A stretch of DNA of 64,000 nucleotides, from assembly GCA_038886535.1 (NCBI GenBank), contig JAVZXS010000002.1, positions 1 to 64,000 of the forward strand. The letters are read 5' to 3'. The notes below the pieces were generated by a model. It saw only the letters and a list, made by a program, of their open reading frames with translations. It was not told where the DNA came from and made no database searches. Position numbers and translations under genes: made by a program. Shown here piece after piece: positions 11,176 to 61,786 of the stretch. Origin of the DNA: Candidatus Micrarchaeia archaeon (GTDB lineage: Archaea; Micrarchaeota; Micrarchaeia; CABMEP01). Each line of letters starts with the position of its first letter. Within the stretch, counting starts at the first letter, position 1.

Positions 11176-14133
11176 TCAACCTTTGATGTTTGCAATAGGT
11201 ATGAACCTTACAACTCTTTTTGATATTCCTGCATTTTCACAGGTTTCTGTAACATCATCTATCGATTTGTATGCAGCCCCTGCCTCCTCAGCCAATCCTG
11301 AAAGGCTGTCTGTTCTTACAATAATACCTCTTTTTTCCATATCCTTCTGCAATTGATCTCCTCTGAACTGATGCTTTGCCTGTGCCCTTGACATGGTTCT
11401 TCCGCTTCCATGCGCAGTGCTACCAAATGTATTTTCTTCTGCATATTTTGTACCCAATAACAAGTAGCTTCCAGTTTCCATTGATCCTCCGAGAATAACT
11501 GGCTGTCCAAGCTTGCTATATTCTGAAGGGATCTCTTTATTTTCAGGTCCAAATGCACGCGTGGCACCCTTTCTGTGAACTATTACCTCTTTCCAACTTC
11601 CCTCTATTAGATACTTCTCCAGCTTTGCTGTGTTATGTGTGACGTCATAAATTTGATGCATTCCTAGTTTTTCAGGATCTGATTTAAAGACATCGCTAAA
11701 TACTTCTCTTATTCTATGGAGTATGACTTGACGGTTTGCAAATGCCATGTTCATTGCTCCTTTCATTGCTGAGAAATAAGTCTGACCTTCTGGCGAGTTG
11801 AAAGGCGCACAAGCAAGCTCCTTGTCCAGGATTTTTATCTTATATTTTGATTCCATTACATTAAGAAAAGTATTAAGAGAATCAGTTGCAACCTGGTGTC
11901 CAAATCCTCTGCTTCCACAATGGAACATTACAACAATCTGACCAGGGAATATACCAAGCTTCTTTGCAGCCTCTTTGTCAAAAATGTTTTCCTCCTTTAC
12001 AACTTGAATTTCTAGGTAATGATTTCCTGAACCTAATGTTCCAATTTGATCATAACCTCTTGTGATTGCTCTTTGACTTATCTTTGAAGCATCCGCCCCT
12101 TCCATGCATCCCTCTTCCTCTGTTCTCTTAAGATCTTCATCCCATCCGTATCCTTTTTTAACAGCCCATTTTGCTCCTTCTTCTATTACCTTTTTGAATT
12201 CGTCCTTGCTTATTTTTACAAATCCAGTTGCACCTACACCTGAGGGAACTCTCTTGAATAATTGATCTATTAATTCACGAATTTTTGGCTTTACATCGTT
12301 TATGGTCAAATCAGTTCTTACAAGACGCATTCCGCAGTTTGATACCACAAATCCATTTGCTATGAAATTATGTGCCCTATGGTTGATAGTAAAGTCGTAT
12401 ACCCAGCCTTCATAGTCTGTTTTTTCCTTTTGAACTACTTCTGTCCATATTGCTCCACTTCTACCGAGTCCTTCGGTTGCTTTCTTGCAAAAATCTTCAA
12501 ACCTATCGAATTCGAACGATATTCTCGGTTTTGTTTTTCTTTTTTCGTAAATTGATCTTATTAAAAATCGTGAATTAACATATTCTGATTCAAGCTCTTT
12601 AATTATTTCAGATTTCGAATAGCTAGATTGCCTCATTGTTTCAGCTAAACTGATTGCATTTATTCTCTTATTTATTATGTTTTCTTTCAGCCTAAGATAT
12701 ACAATCGCAGCATTTGCCTTTGAAGTTTTTTCATTGTTATATTCAAATCCAATCGTTTTGTACAATCTAATCAAATTTTCCGAGTCATTATGCACATGCA
12801 AGCGTATTCTGAATGTTTTGCTGAATTTCCCATCATATTCATAAACCGGTTCACTTACAACGCTTTTTATGTTAAATTCAGCAAGTATTTTTTGTATTTC
12901 AGAAAGAAAATCTACTCCAGATTTAATACATTCTGCTGATTTGTTTATTGATACAGATGGCATGTAAAAATTGAATTCATGGTTAGTAAGTACCTTTGGA
13001 GTACTCATTTCAGCTCCAAAGAATGCAGCAAGGAACAATCGTTTTTGCCACTTTGGAGATTTCGTGATCCATGCAGGCAATTTAAATGCCTGATATGTCT
13101 TATTGCCTACAGGTGCACCAAGCATGGCTAACAATGCAGCAAAAGCGCGCGAAGAAACACGCAAAGAATGCTCCAGAAATTCAAATCTGACCTCACCGTA
13201 TTTTGTAGAAATTTTATGTTTTCTTTTTCTTGAATAGATTTTGCTCGAGAATCCAAGGCGCTTAATTTCATCTTGCATGTTTTTAAGATCTTCCTTATTT
13301 CCCCAGAAGCATGAGCATATTCTACCACTTCGATCAATGTATATGGTTCCATCTCCCATGTTGTACGCAACTAATTTTATAAGCAGAGGAAAATTCTCAG
13401 ATGAAAATCTTAGAGGAAGGAGATTTCTTTTTTTAAGTTCTGTAATTATTTTCTCTTTGCTTGTTTTTGAAAGAGGTAAAATATCGATATCTGATTCGCT
13501 GACAATTATTTCTTCTGATGGAATCTCATATTCCGTTCCTTCAAAGGGAAAAACCACTATTTTTTCTCCTTCTTTTATATCCTGTATCTTTTTCATTCCA
13601 TCCTTTGTCATGATCGGGTGGTCTGCTGTTGCCTTTATCTCCATTCCACATTTAGTCTTTATAATAAAAACATCATCTTTAGACCTGCGCCTTAAATGGA
13701 AAAGAATATCTGCATTAGTCCTTCTTTTTTCTGAAATTAGTGGCAATCTTATCTGTGTTTTGGATTCGAACATGTCTTCAATTCTCAGTGTATACCCATA
13801 TTCAGTCAGTATGCGAGTCTCACCAACTAGACAATTTATGTCAAAGCCCACCCCACCGGGTGAAATTACACCTGTTTCTATGTCAAATGCTGCAACACCA
13901 CCTATTGGAAAACCATATCCGGAATGGCCATCCGGCATGACATAAGAGTATCTTTGAATTCCTGGGAGAGTAGCAACATTTGATGCCTGGTCAAACACTG
14001 CAAGATCCATCGTATCAAGCAATTTCTTGCTTGCATATACTCTTACAGGTACTCGCATTCCTTGCTTGAAAGACGGAGAAATTTCCCATAGATAATCATT
14101 TATCTTTATGAATTCAGGTTTTTTCTGCACCAC
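11176..14133 (-). CDS. rtcB: tRNA-splicing ligase RtcB, intein-containing (about 486 aa after splicing)
   Basis: MPDGHSGYGFPIGG, GFDIN/CGMR, GTLGSGNHYLE, HCGSRGFGHQ, HRKGATRAF, HGSGR. Confidence 0.98.
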   Translation of the reverse strand: MVQKKPEFIKINDYLWEISPSFKQGMRVPVRVYASKKLLDTMDLAVFDQASNVATLPGIQRYSYVMPDGHSGYGFPIGGVAAFDIETGVISPGGVGFDINCLVGETRILTEYGYTLRIEDMFESKTQIRLPLISEKRRTNADILFHLRRRSKDDVFIIKTKCGMEIKATADHPIMTKDGMKKIQDIKEGEKIVVFPFEGTEYEIPSEEIIVSESDIDILPLSKTSKEKIITELKKRNLLPLRFSSENFPLLIKLVAYNMGDGTIYIDRSGRICSCFWGNKEDLKNMQDEIKRLGFSSKIYSRKRKHKISTKYGEVRFEFLEHSLRVSSRAFAALLAMLGAPVGNKTYQAFKLPAWITKSPKWQKRLFLAAFFGAEMSTPKVLTNHEFNFYMPSVSINKSAECIKSGVDFLSEIQKILAEFNIKSVVSEPVYEYDGKFSKTFRIRLHVHNDSENLIRLYKTIGFEYNNEKTSKANAAIVYLRLKENIINKRINAISLAETMRQSSYSKSEIIKELESEYVNSRFLIRSIYEKRKTKPRISFEFDRFEDFCKKATEGLGRSGAIWTEVVQKEKTDYEGWVYDFTINHRAHNFIANGFVVSNCGMRLVRTDLTINDVKPKIRELIDQLFKRVPSGVGATGFVKISKDEFKKVIEEGAKWAVKKGYGWDEDLKRTEEEGCMEGADASKISQRAITRGYDQIGTLGSGNHYLEIQVVKEENIFDKEAAKKLGIFPGQIVVMFHCGSRGFGHQVATDSLNTFLNVMESKYKIKILDKELACAPFNSPEGQTYFSAMKGAMNMAFANRQVILHRIREVFSDVFKSDPEKLGMHQIYDVTHNTAKLEKYLIEGSWKEVIVHRKGATRAFGPENKEIPSEYSKLGQPVILGGSMETGSYLLLGTKYAEENTFGSTAHGSGRTMSRAQAKHQFRGDQLQKDMEKRGIIVRTDSLSGLAEEAGAAYKSIDDVTETCENAGISKRVVRFIPIANIKG
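12337..13833 (-). mobile_element. Intein (499 aa) with LAGLIDADG-type homing endonuclease region in RtcB
   Basis: Starts CLVGETRI after DIN; block B ATADHPI; LAGLIDADG-like YNMGDG and FFGAEM; ends HNFIANGFVVSN before Cys+1. Confidence 0.95.
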
Positions 14134-22306: not shown

Positions 22307-22405
22307 GCCTCGGTAGCTCAGTTGGTAGAGCGTGTGGCTGTTAATTGTATTAGTCAGTTTAAAGCAGAAACCACAAGGTCGGAAGTTCGAGTCTTCCCCG
22401 GGGCG
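22307..22405 (+). tRNA. tRNA-Asn(GTT) with a 26-nt intron at canonical position 37/38 (intron 22344-22369)
   Basis: Acceptor GCCTCGG/CCGGGGC, D-arm GCTC/GAGC, anticodon stem TGTGG/CCACA with CT-GTT-A, T-arm GGAAG-TTCGAGT-CTTCC; bulge-helix-bulge with CTGT/GCAG helix and TAA/AAA bulges; no encoded CCA. Confidence 0.96.
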
Positions 22406-22953: not shown

Positions 22954-25779
22954 TTATTCGATTTTACCTATTATCACTTTTTGTAATTCAACAGGAGGAA
23001 TTGCATTTGCCATTTCTATAGCAAATGAAAGTTTTGTTTCGCTTTCAGATACGATTTCAAATAAAGTATCTCCAGGATTAACTTTATCACCTGTTTCACA
23101 ATGTAGTATTATTCCTGCTCCTTTATCTTTCGGTGCGCCAGCAACTCTAGCTATTTTATTTATATATTTGTTGTCAACGTGCGACACTCTTCCTCCCTTT
23201 TCTGCTTTAATTGCATATCTATAATGACCGATTGGAATATCATCCTCCTTTACATTTGGATTTCCACCTTGCGCCTCTACAATCTCTTTGAATTTTTCAT
23301 ATGCCTTTCCACTTTTGATAATGTCAAATGCATAGTCAGCACCTTTTCCAACTGGCGCCTTCCCAAGCATTTCTAAGATACTTCCAGCCATAAGGCAGCT
23401 CTTCTCCCTCAATTCCTCTCCATCTTTCATTTTAAGCGCTTTAAGGACTTCAAGACATTCAAGACCCGGACCTATACCAAATCCTATTGGATCAGATCCA
23501 TCAGTTATTAGACATCGTGTTTTTATTCCAAGCTGTTCACTAACTTGTAGAAAATCATTCGCTAGCAATCTTCCCTCTGATTCATTTTCAACTTTTGCAC
23601 CTCTTCCAACAGGAATGTCAACAATTAGATACTCCGCGCCTACTGCTTTCTTCTTTCCCAGGATAGATGCTAGTAGAAGACCTTTTGGATCTAGGTGCAA
23701 AGAGTTTCTTATTCTGATTAATTTGTCGTCTACTGGCGCTAGATTTATTGCGCCTCCCCATGCAATACATCCATGTGTTTTAAGAACAACTTTTCTCAAT
23801 TCTTCAATGGGAAGAACAACAGGCGCAAAAACCTCAAATGTATCTGCAGTTCCGGACGCAGATGAAATAGCTCTTGATGATGTTTTCGGAATATATACTC
23901 CGGCAGCTGCAAGAATAGGAACGATTAACATTGTAGTTCTGTTTCCCGCAACTCCTCCTATACAATTATGCACTGCGATTGGCGCAGTTCCAGCCATGAA
24001 TCTGTGATAACCATCAACTTTAATATCATATACGTATTCTGTATTAGGTTTTATCAGTTCGATTCTTTTAATGCGTAAAACAGACAACTGTCCTCTTATG
24101 AATTTCCTAACATCTTCGCTTTTAATATGGGCCATAATGCGTGATAGTTTTTCCTTTGTTATATACTTTTGTTCTTTTAATAGCTTTCTAAAACGCCAAT
24201 CAATTTTATTTTTATCGATCTCTCCAATTTCTTTTATCGGCAGTAGGTTGAGGAATGAGATATTCGCTTTCTTTCTCTCGCCAAAGATTTGGCGTGCTTG
24301 CGTGTATACATAGTATGAATCTTGAGTCATTGCAGTTTGTTTTGGAAATTTTCTTTTCTTCCCCCCAGACATCGACAATTTGGCTGAACATCCCATCAAG
24401 CTAAGCAAGTACTGTAATCCTATTGCCAGATTCTTAGAAGAAGTCACATAAATAACTTTGTATCCTCTTCTCACATATCTATCTCCAGCAAATAACGCCT
24501 TTATGAATTCTTTTTTCATTTCTTCATCTAAATCAAAAATGAATGGTGGAATCTGTTTATTGAGGGCATCGCTTCCAGCTTTCAGTTTTTCAAATTCTTT
24601 TGCAAGCTTTTGGTTATAAATACATATGCGGATTGCGGTTTTATGCACCCTGTTAATTGTCGGTTCTTTTCCAAATAAATGCTTAATGCATGCAACCGCG
24701 TCTTCGATAAGTTCCTTTTCGTGAGAACCAAAATTCAGGAAGATGCCTTGAGAATTTGTAAATCCTTCTGCAATGTAATATCCCAAAAATCTCATAAATT
24801 CACGATCGATCTTTATTTCTTTCTCTCCAATGCTAATCCTTTCCAGTTTTTCTTTGTTTTCATTTTTGAATCCAGAAGGTACAACCACATAATCTCCAAC
24901 TTTTAATTCCTTCGCCATGATGTTGGTTATCTTTCCATTTTTTAGAATAAAAACAGTATGGTCGGAAGTCACAGCGATGTTTCTATTTCCAACTAATGAG
25001 ATTTTATAAAGTTTATCCGGTGCCTTCACTCGAAATACACCAGAAACAGGTTTGAATGAAACATTTCCTTCGTCATCAAATACAAGGGTCTGGAGTCCGT
25101 TTAAATTTTTATTAGTAAATTCCGCACCATCATCATTTATAATTTCATCTGGCTTGCATCGATCAAATATTTTGTCAATTGCATCACCAATGTTGACAAC
25201 CTTTGCTTCTCCACTATTCTTTATTAAGATAGGTACGTCTCCAGCCAGGCAATGCTTATCTGCAATAGGGTGGACACCAAGATCTAATGTTGTTCCTGTT
25301 TCAACCATTGCCTTAGCAAGAGAAACTGTTTCCCCTATTCCAAATCCATTTATATACGCAGCTGCAATGAATGATGCAAGTTCACCTTCACTTAATCTAT
25401 TTTCAACTGTTTCTTTTACTATAGTATATATCTCGTTTTCAGTAAGCGATTCTCTATCCATTTTTTTCTTTATATATTCTAATGATTTTGGAACCGGGAT
25501 ATGTTGTATTTCTACAATATCGCCATCTTTAACTTTCAATTGTTTTGCTATATCTTTATAAATTGCCACGTCTCCTTTTTTAACCATTGTTTCTGATGTA
25601 TCTATTATAGATATTACTTCTTTTCCTTTGTATTTTATACTCACTCTGTCAGATATGTAAATATCATTATAAGTTGCTTCTTCCTCATTAAGAATAGCTA
25701 TATTTTTTCCAGCTTCTATGTCCAATATTCTTACTTTGAATCTATGAATTCTGTGTGGAATTTCTTTGTTTATTTTCAT
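22954..25779 (-). CDS. AMP phosphorylase, intein-containing (about 512 aa after splicing)
   Basis: DKH/CIGGVAGN, PKTSSRAISSASGTAD, IPVGRGAK, AGAPKDKGAG; N-terminal extension typical of archaeal AMP phosphorylases; adjacent to R15P isomerase. Confidence 0.95.
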   Translation of the reverse strand: MKINKEIPHRIHRFKVRILDIEAGKNIAILNEEEATYNDIYISDRVSIKYKGKEVISIIDTSETMVKKGDVAIYKDIAKQLKVKDGDIVEIQHIPVPKSLEYIKKKMDRESLTENEIYTIVKETVENRLSEGELASFIAAAYINGFGIGETVSLAKAMVETGTTLDLGVHPIADKHCLAGDVPILIKNSGEAKVVNIGDAIDKIFDRCKPDEIINDDGAEFTNKNLNGLQTLVFDDEGNVSFKPVSGVFRVKAPDKLYKISLVGNRNIAVTSDHTVFILKNGKITNIMAKELKVGDYVVVPSGFKNENKEKLERISIGEKEIKIDREFMRFLGYYIAEGFTNSQGIFLNFGSHEKELIEDAVACIKHLFGKEPTINRVHKTAIRICIYNQKLAKEFEKLKAGSDALNKQIPPFIFDLDEEMKKEFIKALFAGDRYVRRGYKVIYVTSSKNLAIGLQYLLSLMGCSAKLSMSGGKKRKFPKQTAMTQDSYYVYTQARQIFGERKKANISFLNLLPIKEIGEIDKNKIDWRFRKLLKEQKYITKEKLSRIMAHIKSEDVRKFIRGQLSVLRIKRIELIKPNTEYVYDIKVDGYHRFMAGTAPIAVHNCIGGVAGNRTTMLIVPILAAAGVYIPKTSSRAISSASGTADTFEVFAPVVLPIEELRKVVLKTHGCIAWGGAINLAPVDDKLIRIRNSLHLDPKGLLLASILGKKKAVGAEYLIVDIPVGRGAKVENESEGRLLANDFLQVSEQLGIKTRCLITDGSDPIGFGIGPGLECLEVLKALKMKDGEELREKSCLMAGSILEMLGKAPVGKGADYAFDIIKSGKAYEKFKEIVEAQGGNPNVKEDDIPIGHYRYAIKAEKGGRVSHVDNKYINKIARVAGAPKDKGAGIILHCETGDKVNPGDTLFEIVSESETKLSFAIEMANAIPPVELQKVIIGKIE
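23965..25251 (-). mobile_element. Intein (429 aa) with LAGLIDADG homing endonuclease region in AMP phosphorylase
   Basis: Starts CLAGDVP after DKH; block B VTSDHTV; LGYYIAEG and LFAGDR motifs; block F YVYDIKV; ends VHN before Cys+1. Confidence 0.95.
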
Positions 25780-43297: not shown

Positions 43298-44524
43298 ATG
43301 GATTCAAATCTTCCAAAAAGAAGAGAGACATTTCAGGTAAAGGTCGGAGACATAACTATTGGCAGCCAGCATCCAATCGTAGTCCAGTCAATGACAAATA
43401 CCAATACAGCTGATGTTGATTCAACTGTAAAACAGATAATAGAACTTCATAAAGCAGGATCAGAAATGGTAAGATTCACAGTAAAAGATGATGAAATGGC
43501 AAAGGCAGTTCCAGAGATAAAGAAAAAACTTATTGATCAGGGGTACACTCTTCCTCTAATAGGGGATTTTCATTTCAACGGAGACATCCTTCTTTCAAAA
43601 TATCCAAAGATGGCAGAGTCTCTTGACAAATGGAGGGTCAATCCAGGAAATGCAGGAAGCGATGAAAGATTTAGAAATATCATAAAGCTTGCAATAGATT
43701 ACAACAAGCCTATAAGAATAGGCGTAAACGGAGGTTCATTGGATCAAAAACTTCTTGCAAGGATGATAGAGAAGGATTTGAAGAAACCAAAAGAAAAGCA
43801 GCTTGGTTCCCACAGGGTTTTTCTTGATGCAATGATAAAGAGTGCATTAACATCTGCAGAATCTGCAATAGAGGCAGGAATGCCAGAGAATGCAATTATA
43901 TTATCAGCTAAGGTATCGAATGTGAGAGATCTCATTTATGTTTATTCTAATCTTGCAAAGAAATGCAAGTTCCCCCTTCATCTAGGGCTGACAGAGGCTG
44001 GAGGGGGATCAAAGGGAATAGTTGCATCAGCACAAGGAATAGGGATTCTTTTGAATCAGGGAATCGGGGATACGATTCGTGTTTCTATCACTCCAAGGCC
44101 AGGGCAAAGTAGGACTGAGGAAGTGATTGTTGCCCAAGAAATACTTCAAACTCTTGGTCTCAGGGCGTTCTTCCCGATGGTTACGAGCTGTCCGGGTTGT
44201 GGAAGAACAACGAGCACTGTTTTTCAAACCATAGCAGAGGAGATAAGCAAGTATCTTCAGCAGCAGTCTCATGTTTGGAGGGCGCAGGGATACAAGGGAT
44301 TTGAAAACATGAAGGTTGCAGTCATGGGGTGCATTGTCAATGGTCCGGGCGAGTCAAGAGAGGCAAACATAGGACTAAGCCTGCCAGGATCTGGAGAAAC
44401 CCCATCAGCTCCTGTGTTTGCAGATGGAAAACAGATTGCAACCCTGACCGGAGATGCAAGATCCATCTCAGAGCAGTATAAGAAATTGATAGAGGATTAT
44501 GTGAAGACGCATTATAGAATTTGA
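43298..44524 (+). CDS. ispG: (E)-4-hydroxy-3-methylbut-2-enyl-diphosphate synthase (MEP pathway)
   Basis: VQSMTNT, DFHF, RVNPGN, RIGVNGGSL, PLHLGLTEAG, GIGDTIRVS, CPGCGRT, VMGCIVNGPGE. Confidence 0.98.
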   Translation: MDSNLPKRRETFQVKVGDITIGSQHPIVVQSMTNTNTADVDSTVKQIIELHKAGSEMVRFTVKDDEMAKAVPEIKKKLIDQGYTLPLIGDFHFNGDILLSKYPKMAESLDKWRVNPGNAGSDERFRNIIKLAIDYNKPIRIGVNGGSLDQKLLARMIEKDLKKPKEKQLGSHRVFLDAMIKSALTSAESAIEAGMPENAIILSAKVSNVRDLIYVYSNLAKKCKFPLHLGLTEAGGGSKGIVASAQGIGILLNQGIGDTIRVSITPRPGQSRTEEVIVAQEILQTLGLRAFFPMVTSCPGCGRTTSTVFQTIAEEISKYLQQQSHVWRAQGYKGFENMKVAVMGCIVNGPGESREANIGLSLPGSGETPSAPVFADGKQIATLTGDARSISEQYKKLIEDYVKTHYRI

Positions 44525-47933: not shown

Positions 47934-48803
47934 ATGGAGATAATAGTTGCAGAACCTAAAGGCTTCTGTTTTGGAGTTAAAAGATCTATTGATATGGTTG
48001 AGAAGGCGATCAAGGAAGGAAAGAAAAACATTCAGATCTTTGGTCCTATAGTTCATAATCCTCAACAGATTGCTCTCCTTGAGAAAAAAGGAGTAAAGAT
48101 GGTTAATACTATTGATGAGATCCAGCCTGGAACTGTTTTTATCAGGGCACATGGAGTTTCACCAGATGTTTTCAAAAAGATAAAGGAAAAAGCAGTAGAG
48201 GTAATCGATGCAACATGTCCCTTTGTTAAAGTGGAACAGGAATATGCAAGGAAGCTTGCAGAAGAAGGCTATCAAGTGATAGTAATAGGTGAAAAAAACC
48301 ATCCAGAAGCACTAGGCGCACAAGGATATGCTCCGGGTTCTATCATAATAGGAAGTGTTGAAGAAGCAAGAGGGTTAAAGGAAACACCTAAGATCGGAGC
48401 TGTAGTTCAAACTACATTAGAGCCAGAGGCAGTGGATGATATAGTTGCAGAACTTTATCATAAGGCAAAGGAAGTGAGGGTTTTCAATACAATCTGCCAA
48501 TCAACAAAGATGAGACAGCCTGCTGCAAGGAAGGTTGCACAGGAAGCTGACATAATGATAGTTGTTGGAGGAAAAAATAGTGGAAATACAAGAAGGCTTG
48601 CTGAGGTTTGCAGCAGAATAAAGCCAACCTATCATATTGAAACCGCTGCCGAGCTTAAAAACGAGTGGTTCAAAGGAGTAAACAAGGTTGGAATCAGTGC
48701 AGGCGCTTCCACCCCTGAATTCATAATTGACGAAGTTATAGAAGCAATAAAGCAAATCGATAAAAAAATTGGTAAAAATAATGAAAATAAAAGGAAAAAA
48801 TGA
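47934..48803 (+). CDS. ispH: 4-hydroxy-3-methylbut-2-enyl diphosphate reductase (MEP pathway)
   Basis: GFCFGV, IVHN, RAHG, DATCPFV, HPE, QTT, TICQST, SGNT, GASTP. Confidence 0.98.
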   Translation: MEIIVAEPKGFCFGVKRSIDMVEKAIKEGKKNIQIFGPIVHNPQQIALLEKKGVKMVNTIDEIQPGTVFIRAHGVSPDVFKKIKEKAVEVIDATCPFVKVEQEYARKLAEEGYQVIVIGEKNHPEALGAQGYAPGSIIIGSVEEARGLKETPKIGAVVQTTLEPEAVDDIVAELYHKAKEVRVFNTICQSTKMRQPAARKVAQEADIMIVVGGKNSGNTRRLAEVCSRIKPTYHIETAAELKNEWFKGVNKVGISAGASTPEFIIDEVIEAIKQIDKKIGKNNENKRKK

Positions 48804-54116: not shown

Positions 54117-54473
54117 ATGAAGAAATTAGGAGTATTGATGGCATTATTTCTTTTAGGAACATTGGTTTTTGCACAGACCGGTTCATCAACAGAAGCAAGT
54201 ACAAAGCTTAAATCCGTTCTTAGAACTGTTTGTGATCTTTCTGCAGGACTTTTAGGTCCAATAGCATTTGTACTTATTGTTCTTGCAGGAGTAGTATATG
54301 CAGGCAGTCAATTCTTTGGAGCTGAAGCTAGAGCAACAGGTTCAAAATGGGCAATGACAATGATAACTGGAGCAATAGTAGCATTCTTGCTATGGATTAT
54401 AGGTCCAATGATAATTTCTGCATTCGGTGGTGGCAGCTACCAGATCGGTTCAAGTGCATGCTCTGGTTTCTGA
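54117..54473 (+). CDS. VirB2/TrbC-like pilin 1
   Basis: Signal peptide ending VFA/Q, two hydrophobic helices joined by QFFGAEARA..KW loop; strong AGGTGA RBS. Confidence 0.7.
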   Translation: MKKLGVLMALFLLGTLVFAQTGSSTEASTKLKSVLRTVCDLSAGLLGPIAFVLIVLAGVVYAGSQFFGAEARATGSKWAMTMITGAIVAFLLWIIGPMIISAFGGGSYQIGSSACSGF

Positions 54474-54504
54474 TTGATAATATTTTTTCTTTTAGTTGAT
54501 TGCC

Positions 54505-54909
54505 ATGTCAGATGCAAGGACTAGATTTAAAGGTCATTCAAAGAAATCAAAAAGCAATTCAACCTTATATTGGCTAGTCTTTGCTGTTTCTTTTATTTTT
54601 ATTATTTCATTTTCGTTTGCACAGACCATCGGTTCTACACAGGCGTCAGACAAACTTAAAAAAACACTTTGCGATCTTTACAAAGATCTTAATTCAGTAA
54701 TTCCAACTGTCGCATTTGTTCTCTTTGTTCTTGCAGGAGTTGCATATGCAGGAGGTCAATTCTTTGGAGCAGAAACAAGAGCAAAGTCAATATCCTGGTC
54801 AATGTCAATGGTGACTGGTGCAGTAGTTGGATTATTAATTGTTCAGGTTGCGTCCGTTCTTATTTCAAATCTTTCAGGTTATCAATTAAAGGACATTTGT
54901 CCTGTTTAA
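54505..54909 (+). CDS. VirB2/TrbC-like pilin 2
   Basis: Paralog of pilin 1: FSFA/Q, VLAGVAYAGGQFFGAETRA..SW. Confidence 0.7.
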   Translation: MSDARTRFKGHSKKSKSNSTLYWLVFAVSFIFIISFSFAQTIGSTQASDKLKKTLCDLYKDLNSVIPTVAFVLFVLAGVAYAGGQFFGAETRAKSISWSMSMVTGAVVGLLIVQVASVLISNLSGYQLKDICPV

Positions 54910-54984
54910 ATAGTCAATATTTAAATTTTAAATATCTAACATCTTTTTAAATTTTTATTTATAATTTGTTAGTAAGGTGTTTAA

Positions 54985-55344
54985 ATGAAAATCAATATCT
55001 TAATGTCAATAGCCTTTATGTTATTATTGTTTTCGTTCTCATTTGCACAGGGAACTTCTGATGTTACAGAAAGGTTAGTAGTGGGATTGAATGATGTATG
55101 TGTTCAATTGACACAGATTCTTCCTATAATTGCTATTGTATTGTTTGTACTTGCAGCAGTAATTTATGGAATTGGTCATATATTTGGTGCAGAGATGAAA
55201 TCAAAGGCCACAGGCTGGGCTACTTCTATGGTTGTTGGAGCAGTTATCTCGCTTCTAATATTCTTGTTGGCAAGACCTATTCTAGGCATTTTTATTCCAG
55301 AGATATCCACCTCTGACTTCTGCACAGAAAGATTCTATCCATAA
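54985..55344 (+). CDS. VirB2/TrbC-like pilin 3
   Basis: Paralog: FSFA/Q, VLAAVIYGIGHIFGAEMKS..GW. Confidence 0.7.
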   Translation: MKINILMSIAFMLLLFSFSFAQGTSDVTERLVVGLNDVCVQLTQILPIIAIVLFVLAAVIYGIGHIFGAEMKSKATGWATSMVVGAVISLLIFLLARPILGIFIPEISTSDFCTERFYP

Positions 55345-55441
55345 ATTTTTTATTTCACTTTTTGGCATATTCTCTTTTATTCCTTTTTCTATTCAATACA
55401 TAGCATTTAAAAACTTTTAAAGAAATAATAAAGCGATAGCT

Positions 55442-56263
55442 ATGGCACTCGGATTTACTACTAGACAAATGGCTTATGGGGCGATAGGAGTTTCCATATT
55501 AGTTTTCTTAATAATGGCAACACTTCCAGGGGGAAGTACTTTACAATTCATCATGGCAGGTTTGTCTTTATTTACTGCAGTATTGTCATTTATTCTTTGG
55601 AAATACGGATATTGGATGGTTCCATTCATAACAAAGAGGCTTAACATAATTGAAGTACATGATGGGCAATGGGAAACCACTCCAGCACAGGATGCAATAG
55701 TTAAAAAGATAGGAGATGAATATTATGCATCTGTTTTTCTTCACATTAAGATGTACAAATCTACAACAGAAAGATCTCAAGAAGAAAACATGGTTTTCAT
55801 AGATTCATTTGAAAGAGCAATTGCAAACATAAAATATCCAGTAAAGATTGCAACACTTCTTTATGCTAAGGACATAGCAAAATACAGAGAGGATATTGAG
55901 ACAAAGAAATATGAAGCGCAATTAAAGCTTCAGAGAGAAAGAGAAAAATCAGAGCCCGATGTTTTGGCATTAGATAGATTGGAAAAGGAAGTAGCAATGT
56001 ATGAGGCAGAGTTAAACAGAATCATTTCTGGAGAAAGGCCAATGGGATTGATTTCATATGCAATGACAACTGGGGTTGGAGTTACAAAAGATGCAGCAGT
56101 TGCAGTAGCAAAGAATCAGGCAGCTGAAATAAAGACATTGCTTGCAAACGCCCTTAATGTAGAGGTATCATATTTGTATGGAGAAGATATGATGAAGTGT
56201 TATGATCTTGAACACATGGTTCCTCCAACAATAAAGGCATTGAAAGATTTTGTTGAGGCATAG
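55442..56263 (+). CDS. Two-TM membrane protein with coiled coil; possible VirB3/PrgI plus VirB4-N-terminal-like component
   Basis: Two N-terminal TMs, then an alpha/beta region and a coiled coil; sits between the pilins and the ATPase. Confidence 0.55.
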   Translation: MALGFTTRQMAYGAIGVSILVFLIMATLPGGSTLQFIMAGLSLFTAVLSFILWKYGYWMVPFITKRLNIIEVHDGQWETTPAQDAIVKKIGDEYYASVFLHIKMYKSTTERSQEENMVFIDSFERAIANIKYPVKIATLLYAKDIAKYREDIETKKYEAQLKLQREREKSEPDVLALDRLEKEVAMYEAELNRIISGERPMGLISYAMTTGVGVTKDAAVAVAKNQAAEIKTLLANALNVEVSYLYGEDMMKCYDLEHMVPPTIKALKDFVEA

Positions 56264-56294
56264 TTTGGTAAATTATTTTTTTATTGGTGAATAA

Positions 56295-57866
56295 ATGGGT
56301 GATTTAAAGATAAACGATGTTCAGAATACGGATATAGGAAGAAGAACAATCATTGTCAGCCCACCAGAGCCACCCGCAGAATATCTAATGGGCGATCCTA
56401 AGGATTCAATATATTTAGGAAGAACAGCTGTTTTTAATGTTCCTTTCTATTGGAATTTCAAGAGATTAACAAATCCACATATCGCAATAACAGGAATCAC
56501 TGGTTCTGGTAAATCCTATTTGATAAAGACATTTCTCCTCAGGGCAGCACTAGTATGGAATGCAAATGCAATCATCATCGACTGGGCTGGAGAATATAAG
56601 GCATGGGTTAAACAAGTCAATGGGGTTGTAGTAGCTCTTGGAAGAGGTTCTTATCTAAATCTTTTAGACCTTGGAGGCATGAAGCCTTCAGATAGGATAA
56701 AACAAGTAATAAGATCACTTGAAATACTTACTGATATAGGTCAATATCCAGAACAAAGGAGACTTATAGAAGAAGCGATAGAAAAGGCATATTTGAATGC
56801 AGGATTTAAGCTTTCAGAAAAGGATCAGAGAGATGCATTAGGCAATCCTCTAAGGCCGCCTACTCTTAAAGACGTTCAAAAAATTCTACAACAAATGCTT
56901 GAGACAGGGACATATGAGTTTCCTGCAGAACTTCAGAATGCTATTTATAAGATAAAGAAGTTTACTCTTGAAGGTGATGATTATTTTGCAGAACAGTCTA
57001 CTATAGATCTTGACAAACTTCTTACATCTGGTCTTGTTGCAATCGATCTCTCGGGATTGCCAGACGAAACTTTCCGTGCGCTTGCAGCTCTTACCATTCT
57101 TCAATTCATAAAAGAAAAGATGAGAATGGAAGGATGGAAGCCAGAGAAGGGAATAAAACTTTTTGTTGTGCTGGACGAAGCTTGGAAAATTTCGAAGGAT
57201 GAGAATAGCGATGCAGTTATGATTGTAAGAGAAGGAAGAAAGTATCAATTTGCACTGATAGTTGCATCACAGACTCCAACAGATATAAGTGAGGTAATAT
57301 TCAGCAATGTAGGGACTGTAATTATGTTAAGATTAAAGTTTGAAAAGTATCTCGATTATTTGCAAAATTCATTGAGGTTTAGTAATTATATAAGACAACA
57401 GATTTTGGGATTTGGAGTTGGGCAAGCTGCGATTTCTATGGCTTATGAGCAAACCACTCCATTCAGCGAAACATTCATACTTAAGAAGATTGACGGTGAA
57501 GAGCCAATAGTTGATTACTTCATCGATATTCTATCTGTGCTGACAGAAGCACAAAGAAGGGATGAGACAATGCCAAAGAGTTTTTCAATGGAAAGAACAG
57601 CATTCAAGAAGAGATTGAGAGAAATGGGACTTAGCGATCAAAGAGTAGAGGAGATATCTACACTAATTGAAAAGAAGGCAAAGCACATCGATGCAATAGA
57701 ATTCGTGATAGAGCTTGAAAGAAGCGGAGTAAACAGGAAAACAATTACAATGTTCTTCAGAGAGCTTGGAATTGATGATAGTACTATTATAAACATATTT
57801 ACAAGAGCAGATCAGAAAAAGACAGGAGCAGGAGAAAGAGAATTAACTCAAATAACATTAGAATGA
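56295..57866 (+). CDS. VirB4/HerA-like (FtsK-HerA superfamily) ATPase
   Basis: NPHIAITGITGSGKS Walker A, IIDWAGEY, VLDEAW Walker B, REGRKY, ASQ. Confidence 0.9.
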   Translation: MGDLKINDVQNTDIGRRTIIVSPPEPPAEYLMGDPKDSIYLGRTAVFNVPFYWNFKRLTNPHIAITGITGSGKSYLIKTFLLRAALVWNANAIIIDWAGEYKAWVKQVNGVVVALGRGSYLNLLDLGGMKPSDRIKQVIRSLEILTDIGQYPEQRRLIEEAIEKAYLNAGFKLSEKDQRDALGNPLRPPTLKDVQKILQQMLETGTYEFPAELQNAIYKIKKFTLEGDDYFAEQSTIDLDKLLTSGLVAIDLSGLPDETFRALAALTILQFIKEKMRMEGWKPEKGIKLFVVLDEAWKISKDENSDAVMIVREGRKYQFALIVASQTPTDISEVIFSNVGTVIMLRLKFEKYLDYLQNSLRFSNYIRQQILGFGVGQAAISMAYEQTTPFSETFILKKIDGEEPIVDYFIDILSVLTEAQRRDETMPKSFSMERTAFKKRLREMGLSDQRVEEISTLIEKKAKHIDAIEFVIELERSGVNRKTITMFFRELGIDDSTIINIFTRADQKKTGAGERELTQITLE

Positions 57867-57921
57867 TGACCTAAACATATTCAGATTGTATATTCATGTA
57901 GAAGGATTTAGAGGGATTTTG

Positions 57922-58368
57922 ATGGCTAAAGTATGTATAATTGGAAAAGAAGAAGTCAAGGGAGGAAATTACAAGAAAGTCAAGGAAGATATAGTTATCT
58001 CATCCATAAGGAATCTTAAGAGATTCTTTAAGATCGCTGCAGAAAACGAGCTTGTAGTGTGTGAGAATCATCTCGGAGAGGCAATTAAAAGAAGAAAGGA
58101 ATTTGAATCATCAATAGTAAAGATAGTTGCTGTGGTTGCAGTGATAGCGGTTATAGCAATCATACTAGCTTTACTCAATAACTCTCTCAATTTCATCCCA
58201 GCTACAATTTCAATGATCATCTTACTATTCATACTATTGATGTTTGTTTCTTTGTTTAGGTATTTCCCTGCAATAGAAAATGCAGAAATAGTTTCGAATG
58301 AGAAAGAGAAAAAGCAAAAAGAGACTACAAAGCAATTTAAAGAAAAGCAAAAAGTAAAGAGGAGATAA
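57922..58368 (+). CDS. Two-TM membrane protein with possible metal-binding N-terminus
   Basis: VCIIG...VCENH, then two hydrophobic helices and a basic tail. Confidence 0.7.
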   Translation: MAKVCIIGKEEVKGGNYKKVKEDIVISSIRNLKRFFKIAAENELVVCENHLGEAIKRRKEFESSIVKIVAVVAVIAVIAIILALLNNSLNFIPATISMIILLFILLMFVSLFRYFPAIENAEIVSNEKEKKQKETTKQFKEKQKVKRR

Positions 58369-58369
58369 G

Positions 58370-59116
58370 ATGGTTTCATTTGACAAGAAAGATCAACAGG
58401 TTTCATCAAGAGAACCATTCATCGAGGGATTTAGGATAGAAGCAAAGATGCTCAAAGGAACTCAGGAAATAATAGATGCACTTTCGCCATTGCAGTTCTT
58501 AGACATAGTAGAAACAAAAACAGGAATAGCAGCAATTAATGTCGAGAGAAGAGACATTCAAAAGAATCCATATCTCTTTTCCATAATCTATCTCAATCCA
58601 GATTGTATAGAGATAATATACAGCTATAACCCAGATGAGAGCCCAAAGAAAAGAAGATTAGAAATACTTCGCTACTTTTTGAATATTGTAACTCTTCTTG
58701 AGAATGTTTATTTCATTAATCACAAACAGCTTTATCAGGTTGTTGACAACTTCATGTCACGTCTTTTGGAATATACCTCTTCTACCTATGAGGAGCTTTT
58801 CTCAAAATATGATTCAGTAAAGGAAGAGTGCGACAGGATAAAGAAGCAGCTTGCAGAGGTAACAGCTGCAAATGAAAGCCTCAGGAAATCAAACATGGAG
58901 CTGAAGGAGCAGCAGAATCAATTGATGCTTAGGATAAAGGAACTCGAGATGGTTTCAGATGATGTTCTCATCTCAAGAATACAGACATGGTTGGATGAAC
59001 ATAATTATGAGATAAACATTTCTGATTTCGCTAGAATAAATAAGGTCAGTGAGCAAAGAGTAGAAGAGATACTTAATAAAATGGTAAGAGAAGGATATTT
59101 AATACAGAGAGAATAA
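58370..59116 (+). CDS. Coiled-coil protein with C-terminal winged-helix domain
   Basis: Heptad region from YDSVKEE to RIKELE; IQTWLDEHNYEINISDFARINKVSEQRVEEILNKMVREGYL. Confidence 0.75.
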   Translation: MVSFDKKDQQVSSREPFIEGFRIEAKMLKGTQEIIDALSPLQFLDIVETKTGIAAINVERRDIQKNPYLFSIIYLNPDCIEIIYSYNPDESPKKRRLEILRYFLNIVTLLENVYFINHKQLYQVVDNFMSRLLEYTSSTYEELFSKYDSVKEECDRIKKQLAEVTAANESLRKSNMELKEQQNQLMLRIKELEMVSDDVLISRIQTWLDEHNYEINISDFARINKVSEQRVEEILNKMVREGYLIQRE

Positions 59117-59164
59117 CAAATGCTATGTTGATGATTTCTTAATATTCTAATAAAGAGGATAGGT

Positions 59165-61786
59165 ATGCAAGATGAGAAAAATCAAACAAATCAAAGAAAA
59201 TTTGCAAAGGTACATAGGGCAGTATACAAGTTTAATATTAGAAGGATGTTCATACCTATCAAGAGATTTATAAAAAAGACAAATGAATTCACCCCACAGA
59301 TGATCTTGGATTCATTATCATCTTTATTCAAGCCAAAGGAGAAGTATGGTGAGAAAAAAGAACTCAAGCCAATGAAACCAGTAAAGGCAATGCCTTCTCC
59401 TATAATGAATTTCATAATTGTATTCCTTTTATGCCTGTTGGCGATCGGAGGATATTTTCTTTTCATTTATTACACTGGTCCTTCAGAGCCTGTGACTCCT
59501 CCGGTAACAGAAATACCAAAACCAACTCTTTCAGTAAATGTATTGAGCTCAGGCTATCTTGATTCTTCTTTTGACAAGACAAGATGGTTTGCCTTAGTTG
59601 AAATTTCTTCCCAGAATGCTACAAACATAAGCTTGGATATGGTTATTCAGCAGAATCCCATCCCAAATGATGTTTATATATTAAGAGTTCCAAACTACCA
59701 ATTTGCATCAAACTATCCTCAGTTCTATTCTGTTCTGAAGAACAAGCTTGAGAAGAAAGGATTGTATCTTTCAGAAATAACTATAGATGAACTTGTCTCT
59801 TTGCCATCCACAAGAAAAATAATTTTAGTGGTTCCTTCAGGCTATCTCCCAGCTGTATTTGTTGGGGAGGAATATGCAAATTTCACTCTAAAAAGCTTTG
59901 TTGAAAATGGAAATGTTGTAATCTACATAGGTTACAAACCAACAGACAGCATTCTTTATTCCAATTCTCCAAACCCGCAGCCATTATCTCTAGATAAGAT
60001 AGCAAGCTGGCAGCTTTCATTTGATCAAGCTACAGATCAGCCATCATTCTTCTCGTTCAGGAATCCATTGTATTCTGTAAAGGCAGTAGGAAGTACATCA
60101 ACCCGTCCAGCAGTAACAGGAGAACCTGGCGGTTTCTCTGTTAAGTGGGGTGGAGATGGGTTTGCATATTTTATACCAACCACAATAGATTTCTGGTGGC
60201 AATTTTCAGGTGAGAAGTCTGCAGAGGAGCTTGCAGATGCGATAGTAAATGGAAAATGGGGCTATGGTCTTTCAAGAATACAGAAAACCATTCCTGTGAA
60301 TGGTTCCATAAACAAGCAGATAATCATATTCAGCTCGCAATTTAAATTCCCGGACAGCACAAGGGTTTCAAGATCTTATGGGAAGCTTTATGTTCAATCC
60401 CTGAATCAGGTAGAGAACCTAACTGAAATCAATGGTATTTCTCTTCCTGTCAGATTTCCAACCAGGCCGAATGGCATTTTGATGCATGATGATGTAGCAT
60501 TAAATTCAATCATAACTGGAAATCCTCTTGAGATAAAGTACTCTTTAAACGAAAATACAACTGAATTAAGACAGCTTTATTTATCTGCCATATCAGAAAA
60601 CAATGAAGAAATTTTATTCACGCCTATAACTGCTGCTCCAGTACCTCTTAAGCTTTCAAATGCAGTATATAGATTTGATAACAGGCTTCCGCAAGGCAAT
60701 TATATATTAAGAATAACAGATGACAGGCGAAACGTTTATGCACAATCATATCTTTCAATGGCATCTTTCAATATCGAACCTTACATCACAGATTTCATAT
60801 CTGGCAATTATATCTTTAATGTATATTTCTCATCAACAGGTGAGCAATACACCTCTGATTTGAAGAATGTGGTTGTCTCAGTTGATGATGGAGACAAAAA
60901 GACACTCGAGGTAAGACAGGGTAGAATTTTATATAACGCCACTCCTATTACTGTGCCTGGTGTTCATATATTTAAATTTGAATTCGGGCCGGATACAATT
61001 ATTCTTCCAGTAACTTACACAAGACCTGTTTCTATGTTTGAGAGGCCAGAAAACATAGCAATGGGAATAATCGCAATACTTCTCTTTGCAATCGGGTATT
61101 TGATTTCAAGACCAGAGGCAGTAAAATATTCAATAGATGTTCCAGATTTCCCACCCTTACAATCAATAGCAGTTCCAATAAAAAGAGAAAAAATATTGGA
61201 CATGTTTGATTCGATAAATGCTGATCTTAAATGGAAATATACTCCACTTACAATCAATGATCTAAAGATGGGATTCAAGAAGATAATGTTCAGAGGAAAA
61301 CCTCTTCTTGTTGGCGATTACAATCTTGAAATGGTTCTTGACAAGCTTAAGGAAGAGGGATATGTTGTCCAGTCAATGGATTATTATGGATTAAAAAGAT
61401 GGGAGAAGGAAACAAGAAAATCAATTTATTACCTTGCTCTTGTTAGGGCTCTTAGGGATGTGTTTGTAACAGAGGGAATTCCATTCCTTCAATTTGGACA
61501 GAGGGGAGATGCAGATACAGTACTAAGCTACGGTGGAGAAAAGGTATATATTCACATTTATGAATCTGATGCAGTTATAAAGAAGGCAATTCAAACTTCC
61601 TCTTTCGGAAGAACAATTATTGTTTTTGAGAATGAAACAGTGATGAATGATTTCCTATCCAGAATTCATACTCCGAGCCAGCAAAACGTAGTATTCAAAT
61701 TGCTCCTTGACAACGGAAAGATAAGCGTTGCTCCAATAACAAGTTTCATGGATGTTCTGACAAAGAAAAAAATATTTACTTACTAA
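59165..61786 (+). CDS. Large two-TM membrane protein with extracellular domain and cytoplasmic C-terminal region
   Basis: TMs FIIVFLLCLLAIGGYFLF and IAMGIIAILLFAIGYL; 873 aa; last gene of the co-oriented cluster. Confidence 0.8.
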   Translation: MQDEKNQTNQRKFAKVHRAVYKFNIRRMFIPIKRFIKKTNEFTPQMILDSLSSLFKPKEKYGEKKELKPMKPVKAMPSPIMNFIIVFLLCLLAIGGYFLFIYYTGPSEPVTPPVTEIPKPTLSVNVLSSGYLDSSFDKTRWFALVEISSQNATNISLDMVIQQNPIPNDVYILRVPNYQFASNYPQFYSVLKNKLEKKGLYLSEITIDELVSLPSTRKIILVVPSGYLPAVFVGEEYANFTLKSFVENGNVVIYIGYKPTDSILYSNSPNPQPLSLDKIASWQLSFDQATDQPSFFSFRNPLYSVKAVGSTSTRPAVTGEPGGFSVKWGGDGFAYFIPTTIDFWWQFSGEKSAEELADAIVNGKWGYGLSRIQKTIPVNGSINKQIIIFSSQFKFPDSTRVSRSYGKLYVQSLNQVENLTEINGISLPVRFPTRPNGILMHDDVALNSIITGNPLEIKYSLNENTTELRQLYLSAISENNEEILFTPITAAPVPLKLSNAVYRFDNRLPQGNYILRITDDRRNVYAQSYLSMASFNIEPYITDFISGNYIFNVYFSSTGEQYTSDLKNVVVSVDDGDKKTLEVRQGRILYNATPITVPGVHIFKFEFGPDTIILPVTYTRPVSMFERPENIAMGIIAILLFAIGYLISRPEAVKYSIDVPDFPPLQSIAVPIKREKILDMFDSINADLKWKYTPLTINDLKMGFKKIMFRGKPLLVGDYNLEMVLDKLKEEGYVVQSMDYYGLKRWEKETRKSIYYLALVRALRDVFVTEGIPFLQFGQRGDADTVLSYGGEKVYIHIYESDAVIKKAIQTSSFGRTIIVFENETVMNDFLSRIHTPSQQNVVFKLLLDNGKISVAPITSFMDVLTKKKIFTY

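Follow-up and report, generated by a model that had tools for sequence, protein, structure and literature searches.

The window, that is, the whole stretch of 64,000 nucleotides analysed here, covers positions 1 to 64,000 of the forward strand of contig JAVZXS010000002.1, from an assembly of a Candidatus Micrarchaeia archaeon (GCA_038886535.1; 1.14 Mb in 40 contigs, 88% complete). Micrarchaeota correspond to the NCBI phylum Microcaldota, kingdom Nanobdellati (DPANN). Between positions 54117 and 61786 of the window, eight open reading frames (ORFs) lie head to tail on the plus strand with intergenic gaps of 1-97 nt. An earlier note, made from the sequence alone, had read these co-oriented genes as a chromosomal type IV secretion system (T4SS)-like pilus cluster; all eight ORFs are present on that strand, as follows, with transmembrane segments abbreviated as TM:

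54117..54473, +: putative pilin paralog 1, 118 aa; signal peptide ending in ..VFA ahead of Q; two TM helices, FGAE..R loop; Cys 39 and 115
54496..54909, +: putative pilin paralog 2, 137-aa ORF; TTG start, the true start being perhaps the ATG at codon 4; Cys 59 and 135
54985..55344, +: putative pilin paralog 3, 119 aa; paralogous to pilins 1 and 2; Cys 39 and 113
55442..56263, +: membrane anchor and VirB4 N-terminal-domain-like protein, 273 aa; TM hairpin ~8-55, cytoplasmic domain 73-273
56295..57866, +: ATPase, 523 aa, in two parts:
56295..57554, +: VirB4/CedB-like ATPase core, residues 1-420; Walker A 67-74, Walker B 291-298
57555..57866, +: C-terminal helical tail of the ATPase, residues ~421-523, ~100 residues
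57886..58368, +: zinc-ribbon-like two-TM protein, 160-aa ORF; likely start Met13 at 57922; TM 71-131
58370..59116, +: cytoplasmic protein, 248 aa; N-terminal domain, coiled coil, C-terminal winged-helix-like domain
59165..61786, +: envelope protein, 873 aa; TM 79-103, ectodomain, TM 628-647, cytoplasmic winged helix ~669-750 and alpha/beta domain

By hydropathy, each of the three small proteins consists of a signal-peptide-like segment and two TM segments. The 273-aa, 160-aa and 873-aa proteins are also predicted to have two TM segments each, the ATPase and the 248-aa protein to have none.

The small proteins and the ATPase

The three small proteins, 32-40% identical and with a 73-nt DNA core in common, are paralogous to one another; their hydropathy bears out the two-helix layout with a cleavable signal peptide that the earlier note had described. 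A hydrophobic signal peptide ending in ..FA is followed by Q and by two TM helices with a conserved FGAE..R/K loop. Exactly two cysteines occur in each protein, one ahead of the first TM helix and the other 3-7 residues short of the C-terminus, and both are conserved in the alignment. Signal-peptide cleavage should leave both termini outside the cell, where the Cys pair could form a link between the N- and C-terminal segments.

Pilin 1 matches Pfam T4SS_pilin (PF18895) with 27.2 bits (cut-off 26.6) and TrbC with 19.9 bits; pilin 2 matches TrbC/VirB2 (PF04956) with 28.7 bits (cut-off 27.9) and the NCBIfam TrwL-type VirB2 pilin with E = 8.5e-6; pilin 3 stays under the Pfam cut-offs (TrbC 23.9 bits, T4SS_pilin 19.7 bits). 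Across 20 members of the family, TrbC is matched by 12 and T4SS_pilin by 11 at E<=1e-3, and other families hardly ever. The family profile finds TrwL, the VirB2 of R388, as its top match among PDB sequences, a weak one at E = 0.063. No row for CedA1 (PF27251), a model whose presence in the searched library is unconfirmed, appeared in the Pfam scans of the pilins. On their Pfam scores, we class the small proteins as putative VirB2/TrbC-type pilins. A fourth paralog, with 118 aa and the same signal peptide and Cys pair, is encoded 3.5 kb past the window end (C2:67504-67860, +). Directly after it stands a gene for a 139-aa multi-TM protein of no known family (L123:3886-4305, the pilin being L123:3504-3860).

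The 273-aa protein has no Pfam or NCBIfam family, and its family profile has no significant match among PDB sequences. Its AlphaFold (AF2) model (pLDDT 81.3) was compared with the PDB by Foldseek, and all 11 listed rows through rank 12 are TrwK, the VirB4 of R388 (best E 3.3e-3, probability 1.0). VIA-align places residues 73-273 of the model on TrwK 219-384, the stretch of the VirB4 N-terminal domain just ahead of the ATPase, with Z 12.4-9.2, 151-163 aligned residues and a root-mean-square deviation of 3.3-4.0; the unrelated rows beneath TrwK reach Z<=8 over ~60 helical residues. The protein had been described as a two-TM, coiled-coil protein. The two TM segments stand, and the soluble part is now better described, from Foldseek and VIA-align, as resembling the missing N-terminal half of VirB4.

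The ATPase has intact Walker A and B motifs, which are invariant columns in the family alignment, and no TM segment. Only ~66 residues precede the P-loop, so that the ATPase has room neither for the HAS barrel of HerA nor for the ~400-residue N-terminal domain of VirB4. Given that the 273-aa protein has the predicted fold of that domain and the ATPase is without it, the two proteins look like one VirB4 cut in two. The TM hairpin of the 273-aa protein may then have a VirB3-like role as a membrane anchor. No fused VirB4-like form was found among the 120 best database relatives of the ATPase, which are 395-568 aa long. A complex prediction for residues 62-273 of the 273-aa protein and residues 1-420 of the ATPase, both supplied as alignments, returned a score of 0.00 and no verdict, which is not evidence either way.

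The assignment of the ATPase to an FtsK-HerA/VirB4 type in the earlier note is upheld and can be narrowed by its NCBIfam ranking. CedB comes first (3.7e-24), followed by the CD1110 VirB4-like family (5e-22) and CedD (1.3e-20), with TraC (3e-15) and VirB4_CagE (2e-13) as weaker VirB4-type matches, and HerA reaches no better than 3e-14. The ranking is general: in all 27 family members, CedB, CD1110-VirB4, CedD and the Mycoplasma VirB4 of integrative conjugative elements (ICEs) (best E 2e-24 to 2e-20) stand above HerA (9e-17), the HerA families being ~5-7 orders of magnitude worse than CedB/VirB4. In Pfam, the ATPase matches DUF87 ('HerA central domain', the top match at 4e-16), AAA_10 and the TraG P-loop. 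A single-sequence PDB search puts HerA first (1.4e-13, over partial stretches) and VirB4 lower (7.8e-5, over the whole domain). Public annotations conflict, reading 'ATP-binding protein', 'HerA' or 'type IV secretory pathway VirB4'. The Pfam and PDB results, the records that say 'HerA' and the gene for RadA 1.3 kb upstream of the cluster would all suit an operon for a HerA-type ATPase of DNA repair or defence, with unrelated small membrane proteins as chance neighbours. Nevertheless, we consider this very improbable. Besides the short N-terminus, the family ranking and the partner protein with a VirB4 N-terminal-domain fold, neither the HAS barrel (ATPase N-terminus) nor a NurA, Sir2 or DUF4297 partner (Pfam results of the cluster) was found in the cluster; pilins and ATPase co-occur strictly among the relatives described below; and the neighbourhood of RadA is confined to the 8 closest loci.

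The C-terminal tail of the ATPase recurs as a separate gene. Directly downstream of the ATPase, a free-standing gene for a ~100-aa tail (a second small ORF matching query residues >=400) is present in 65 of 79 loci. We had considered this small ORF as a split-off C-terminus, but in 64 of these 65 loci the ATPase still has a tail of its own, and the free gene is an extra copy; the lineage of the window has the fused copy only. In some Micrarchaeota, a LAGLIDADG intein is inserted just past the P-loop of the ATPase (L022:799-4323 (+), a 1174-aa ORF; also G014:C2 and G039:C37), with Pfam matches in one relative to Intein_splicing (4.8e-18) and LAGLIDADG_3 (3.7e-18).

Conservation and inheritance

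Synteny was surveyed in 80 loci with 8-kb flanks, several of them interrupted by contig ends. The gene order is constant and is held across Micrarchaeota, with the companions of the ATPase (80/80) present at 66-75 of the loci: the 273-aa gene at 75, the 248-aa gene at 68, and the zinc-ribbon and 873-aa genes at 66 each. In most of the loci the 273-aa gene is represented by two tandem paralogs. Pilins were found by phmmer at only 10 of the 80 loci because the flanks are too short: at least 9 genomes from other families have their pilin genes on the strand of the ATPase, 9-11 kb upstream of it. When whole genomes were searched with the pilin profile, 34 of 41 relatives had pilins, often in 2-7 copies, and the 7 without are exactly the 7 that have no strong ATPase match.

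At E<=1e-60, the ATPase is found in 261 of 301 sampled Micrarchaeota genomes and in 157 of the 176 of high quality. Relatives in the same genus share 90-99% identity with the window ATPase, those in the same family 83-86% and those across the class 52-66%; for RadA the values at these levels are 89-99%, 79-85% and 60-72%. The two identities are correlated (Spearman 0.76 for 33 relatives and 0.51 for the 24 distant ones), although the relatives are not independent and the support is overstated to that extent. The RadA, HprK, GT4 and GatE flanks are common to the 6-8 closest loci only. In a locus of another family, the upstream genes are a topoisomerase-like gene (708 aa) and ORFs that look, by eye, like phosphoglycerate kinase and adenylosuccinate lyase, and a large ORF resembling a family-B DNA polymerase lies downstream. 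The phylum-wide presence, the tracking of RadA and the changing flanks thus argue for a vertically inherited cellular system rather than a mobile element.

The surroundings in the window are of the same kind, and here the earlier note's picture of ordinary neighbours is borne out. RadA and an HprK-like P-loop protein are encoded upstream, and a family-4 glycosyltransferase (GT4) and GatE downstream, all on the opposite strand. The remaining ORFs of the window are housekeeping genes in the Pfam scan, among them eRF1, RtcB with an intein, Topo VI A/B, FtsZ, Spt5, ribosomal L1/L10/P1, IF-2B, GcpE and LytB. As had been noted from the sequence, integrases, relaxases and att-like repeats are not in view: the scan detected no integrase or relaxase families among the 48 other window ORFs, and a repeat search found no direct repeats bracketing the cluster on either side. 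The G+C content of the cluster (0.34-0.37) is level with the remainder of the window, and the sole tRNA of the window (22307-22405) is 32 kb away.

An alternative is that the cluster is not a cellular system but the conjugation module of a mobile element that has integrated or is decaying (an ICE or plasmid remnant). VirB4 together with VirB2 is a hallmark of conjugative elements, and archaeal conjugative plasmids are also without recognisable relaxases (PMC12857230; here and below, statements on published work draw on passages of the main texts cited). When plasmids were searched with the ATPase by tblastn, 2673 records matched, of which 2292 are predicted conjugative; the identity to plasmid TraC is 22-27%, and among the 25 plasmid matches listed, 13 are annotated traC and the others are unnamed ATP-binding, DUF87 or DUF5934 proteins. 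Furthermore, the assembly holds two TraG/VirD4-like ATPases, on contigs C7 (456 aa) and C31 (469 aa). We had weighed these as the missing coupling proteins and rejected them, since they have no counterpart in any of 40 relatives and the C7 copy lies beside bacterial F-type tra genes. C7 (L107: 327-8603; L109) encodes TraC (868 aa), TraN, TraF and the TraG/VirD4-like ATPase; C8 (L106: 931-5956) encodes a full-length TraC (804 aa) and a secretin; the second TraG/VirD4-like ATPase is on C31 (L108). Given the F-type TraC, TraN, TraF and secretin and the 0/40 count, C7, C8 and C31 are probably a mis-binned or foreign bacterial conjugative element of the diderm F type. Mis-binning would fit the size of the assembly, 1.14 Mb against 0.5-0.8 Mb in congeners; the C7 and C8 contigs have the same G+C content as the remaining assembly.

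With these two ATPases set aside, the presence of the ATPase in 261 of 301 genomes with a divergence that follows RadA, the housekeeping context with its changing flanks, and the lack of an integrase (48 window ORFs), of PF03432 (genome), of flanking repeats and of a shift in G+C content all stand against a mobile origin, to which we assign hardly any probability. The relaxase search of the genome was limited to family PF03432, of which no member was found. Thus, of the VirD4 coupling protein and relaxase that define the conjugative subtype, we found no conserved coupling protein and no PF03432.

The stretch in the window is present in 7 hot-spring metagenome DNA runs, and no RNA run is among the listed holders. 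ATPase genes with 51-82% identity, in the same operon, also occur on contigs labelled Saccharimonadales bacterium, Aenigmatarchaeota, Marsarchaeota and 'ainarchaeum', which are probably mis-binned or mislabelled Micrarchaeota.

Components beyond the pilins and the motor

The cluster in the window is part of the system: arrays of polytopic membrane proteins lie on two other contigs, and the fourth pilin lies past the window end. Between the pilins and the ATPase, the complete Ca. Fermentimicrarchaeum limneticum genome encodes six polytopic membrane proteins that are paralogs of one another. They are part of a co-oriented block of ~16 kb that comprises 2 pilins, the 6 paralogs, 2 anchor proteins (g4, counterparts of the 273-aa protein), the ATPase, the free tail, and the zinc-ribbon, winged-helix and ectodomain proteins. 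In the genome of the window these paralogs form two colinear six-gene arrays, C1 (44838-52704) and C4 (24764-32038). No Pfam or NCBIfam family matches them, and their profile matches no sequence of a solved structure. By hhalign, the pilin profile matches their N-terminal hairpin with a probability of 87% (E 4e-6, 99 columns), a score to be read with the bias of TM segments in mind. The ESM Atlas gave one look-alike cluster, in which Pfam CedA1 is found on 23% of members (score 0.90), a lead only. Judging by position and number alone, the six paralogs would be the membrane platform, in a role equivalent to VirB6/CedA.

After the six-paralog array on C1, two further genes (C1:52785-56703; L104:14786-18703) encode a 587-aa protein with a signal/TM segment and a long coiled coil, and a 710-aa secreted protein rich in Ser and Cys. 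Neither has a Pfam or NCBIfam match, and both may be further envelope parts of the system.

Three accessory proteins follow the ATPase in the window, and the earlier note's small two-TM and coiled-coil/winged-helix proteins are recovered among them from hydropathy and weak Pfam matches. Most relatives of the 160-aa protein have a cytoplasmic CxxC...CxxC zinc ribbon and a TM hairpin (alignment of 15 homologs); in the window protein 2 of the 4 ribbon cysteines are replaced, and C17, C59 and H62 remain. The 248-aa protein has only weak Pfam matches, to the EAP30/Vps36 winged helix (7.8e-6; 26.2 bits, cut-off 26.8), TelA, the ZapB coiled coil and MarR_2 (0.029).

The 873-aa protein is without a Pfam or NCBIfam family, its profile has no significant match among PDB sequences, and the ESM Atlas has no usable match. 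Its AF2 model has a pLDDT of 76.4, with a disordered, cytoplasmic N-terminus and an ectodomain made of a beta domain, an alpha/beta domain (168-365) and tandem beta-sandwiches (~368-618). Foldseek leads to tandem MG/immunoglobulin (Ig)-like domains (E ~2e-6), and VIA-align gives Z 10.0 for 168-365, Z 8-9.5 for the beta-sandwiches and a middling Z 7.6-8.8 over 66-74 residues for the winged helix. The best-conserved region is cytoplasmic and begins with this winged helix. The protein had been described as a membrane protein, and a comparison with VirB6/CedA, among others, had been suggested for each ORF of the cluster. It is a membrane protein with two TM segments; a polytopic channel of the VirB6/CedA type is ruled out by that topology and, in the model, by the Ig-like ectodomain and the cytoplasmic winged helix.

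These components bear on whether there is an external pilus at all. VirB2-like hairpins, whether on their own or within the polytopic paralogs, could instead form a membrane channel or a short stub powered by the split VirB4, that is, as a translocon for the uptake or export of DNA, nucleotides, lipids or proteins at a host contact site. A pilin-like hairpin is indeed integral to the N-terminus of the six paralogs, a large protein with an Ig-like ectodomain is a conserved member, and Gram-positive T4SSs, Patescibacteria excepted, are described as being without VirB2 and VirB5 (PMC12857230). However, all 34 ATPase-bearing relatives retain free small pilins with cleavable signal peptides, often in 2-7 copies, which is the pattern of a polymerising major subunit, and the homologous archaeal CedA1 and TedC form pili (PMC9905601). 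We therefore regard a pilus-less translocon as unlikely.

The proposed machine and known systems

Taken together, the pilin matches, the ranking of the ATPase and the synteny agree with the earlier proposal of a chromosomal, domesticated, relaxase-less T4SS-like pilus cluster in a DPANN archaeon. We consider it likely that the cluster forms the core of a T4SS-like (Ced/Ted-like) envelope machine that is typical of Micrarchaeota, fixed in the chromosome and inherited vertically. In addition to the matches to HerA and the conflicting annotations given above, several findings weigh against this. The Pfam scores of the pilins are marginal, at most 1 bit above cut-off, and TM hairpins are prone to spurious profile matches, a caveat that the match between pilins and polytopic paralogs shares. 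The ATPase stays under every curated NCBIfam cut-off: CedB (NF041017) scores 85.3 bits against 700, over model positions 251-537 only, and the HerA models likewise score 42-52 bits against cut-offs of 800-970. No VirB6/TrbL (PF04610) was found in the 88%-complete genome, and the polytopic profile has no sequence match to a solved VirB6. The ATPase query misses some families (f3 0/7, f12 0/5, f8 2/15), so that the ATPase is not universal in the phylum. Finally, the pilus is predicted from genes, and the pilin fold from sequence.

The identities of the components and their conservation are what we observed, and from these we infer a scheme for assembly, filament and cargo. Prepilins would be inserted by Sec and cleaved after ..FA into hairpins of ~95-100 aa with both termini outside, and the single Cys pair would staple the N- and C-terminal segments of the mature pilin. 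A hexameric ATPase, tethered to the membrane by the 273-aa protein, would extract the pilins and polymerise them on the platform, for which the candidates are the six polytopic paralogs encoded elsewhere in the genome, each starting with a pilin-like hairpin. The 873-aa protein could be an envelope-spanning or adhesive part, and its winged helix, together with the 248-aa winged-helix protein and the zinc-ribbon protein, may connect the motor with substrate or with its control. As cargo, one might think of DNA, which Ced carries, or of material derived from the host, which has been proposed for Patescibacteria; the machine likely serves to exchange DNA or other material with neighbouring or host cells.

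The closest comparison is with Ced (Sulfolobales/Desulfurococcales: CedA, CedA1, CedA2, CedB, CedD, CedE) and Ted (Thermoproteales: TedA, TedB, TedC), which are chromosomal, pilus-forming and DNA-importing (PMC9905601, PMC11868833). The Micrarchaeota system is likewise chromosomal ('domesticated'), relaxase-less and archaeal, with VirB2-like two-helix pilins, and TedC also has a cleavable signal peptide (PMC9905601). As in Ced, the ATPase is VirB4-like, CedB being its best NCBIfam match, and the VirB4 N-terminal domain appears to be spread over more than one polypeptide, as published for Ced (PMC11868833). The division differs, however. CedB and CedD each have a TM segment and a different part of that domain (PMC11868833), whereas in Micrarchaeota the predicted N-terminal domain and the TM anchor are on a separate, ATPase-less protein (two paralogs in most) and the ATPase has no TM segment. 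At 85 bits against 700, the ATPase falls short of a CedB equivalog. Furthermore, a CedA/TedA-type protein with 5-7 TM segments is not recognised by sequence; in its stead there are the six paralogs with a pilin-like hairpin. The zinc-ribbon, coiled-coil/winged-helix and 873-aa ectodomain proteins and the ATPase tail domain are not among the Ced/Ted components named in the texts cited, in agreement with the earlier note, which did not recognise the accessory genes from Ced/Ted. Ced imports DNA on induction by UV (PMC11868833); the Micrarchaeota system is predicted from its genes.

The T4SS of Patescibacteria (e.g. Southlakia epibionticum) is near-ubiquitous and essential for epibiotic growth (PMC12102498, PMC12857230). 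Here too, an ultra-small, host-dependent lineage has a chromosomal, lineage-wide T4SS, with the relaxase absent in most clusters, and divergent VirB2-like pilins form arrays of 2-11 genes, six in Southlakia, with a proposed role in the epibiotic lifestyle (PMC12102498, PMC12857230). The Micrarchaeota side of this likeness consists of 3 clustered pilins with a fourth nearby, up to 7 in relatives, of the ATPase in 261/301 genomes, and of a genome without PF03432. In its lineage-wide, chromosomal, relaxase-less form with a pilin array, the system therefore parallels the Patescibacteria type, as a functional analogy only. The Patescibacteria system is bacterial, of type MPF-FATA (MPF, mating-pair formation), with VirB1-, VirB3-, VirB6-, VirB8- and VirD4-like parts and an unsplit VirB4, and essentiality was shown there only; in contrast, we found no conserved VirD4 (0/40 relatives) and no TrbL/VirB6 match in Micrarchaeota, where VirB4 appears split.

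With bacterial conjugative T4SSs (R388 Trw, Ti VirB, F Tra), the system has in common a putative VirB2-type pilin and a VirB4-like ATPase with the predicted N-terminal-domain fold (TrwK 219-384) on its partner protein. Unlike them, it lacks a relaxase of family PF03432, a conserved coupling protein, a VirB6/TrbL match and an outer-membrane complex, is not on a mobile element, and has only the above-mentioned low identity to TraC.

The nearest DPANN report that we found concerns giant VirB4/TraG-like proteins of nanohaloarchaea (SPEARE type; PMC10266531), which also combine VirB4/TraG-like ATPase domains with Ig-like surface domains and a proposed role in host interaction. The nanohaloarchaeal ATPase domain is part of a giant Ig-repeat fusion protein, and the passages cited mention no VirB2-type pilins (PMC10266531), whereas the Micrarchaeota components are separate and moderate in size. 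Within this literature, the Micrarchaeota system stands apart in four respects: how VirB4 is split, the family of six paralogs, its three accessory proteins and the absence of any conserved VirD4. Our literature search, confined to main texts, brought up no account of the system for Micrarchaeota or other DPANN, and a term look-up in PMC8784108, PMC8561730, PMC11420986 and PMC13705601 returned no mention of it.

If the proposed reading holds, it would extend the idea of a 'domesticated conjugation machine' from Crenarchaeota (Ced/Ted) to DPANN, and it would offer a concrete, phylum-wide and testable candidate, with named genes, a predicted filament subunit and a motor, for the physical connection of DPANN cells to their hosts and their uptake of material. 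The parallel with the essential T4SS of the Candidate Phyla Radiation suggests convergent use of T4SS-like machines by ultra-small symbionts, and the architecture suggests another way to divide VirB4 among polypeptides and a membrane-protein family that begins with a pilin hairpin. Rather more speculatively, and in our estimate less probably than otherwise, Micrarchaeota and perhaps other DPANN would depend on the machine much as Patescibacteria do on their T4SS. It would be a lipid-lined VirB2-type tube on a hetero-hexameric platform of six pilin-fused proteins, a conduit by which these cells, poor in metabolism, obtain DNA, nucleotides or lipids from Thermoplasmatales-type hosts. In that event, a conjugation machine would have become fixed independently as a symbiosis organ in both large radiations of ultra-small symbionts, and the pilin-fused six-paralog platform with the split VirB4 would be a new T4SS architecture.

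Several features elsewhere in the window were noted in passing. A 725-aa protein (1456-3633, +) is built nearly entirely from ankyrin repeats (Pfam Ank_2, 2e-108), an unusual feature in a small-genome archaeon. GcpE (IspG; 43298-44524, +) and LytB (IspH; 47934-48803, +) are bacterial-type isoprenoid enzymes of the methylerythritol phosphate pathway in an archaeal chromosome context. Inteins interrupt RtcB and a thymidine/AMP-phosphorylase-like gene (11176-14133, -, and 22954-25779, -), and in three relatives RadA is split by an insertion (ORFs of 847-875 aa).

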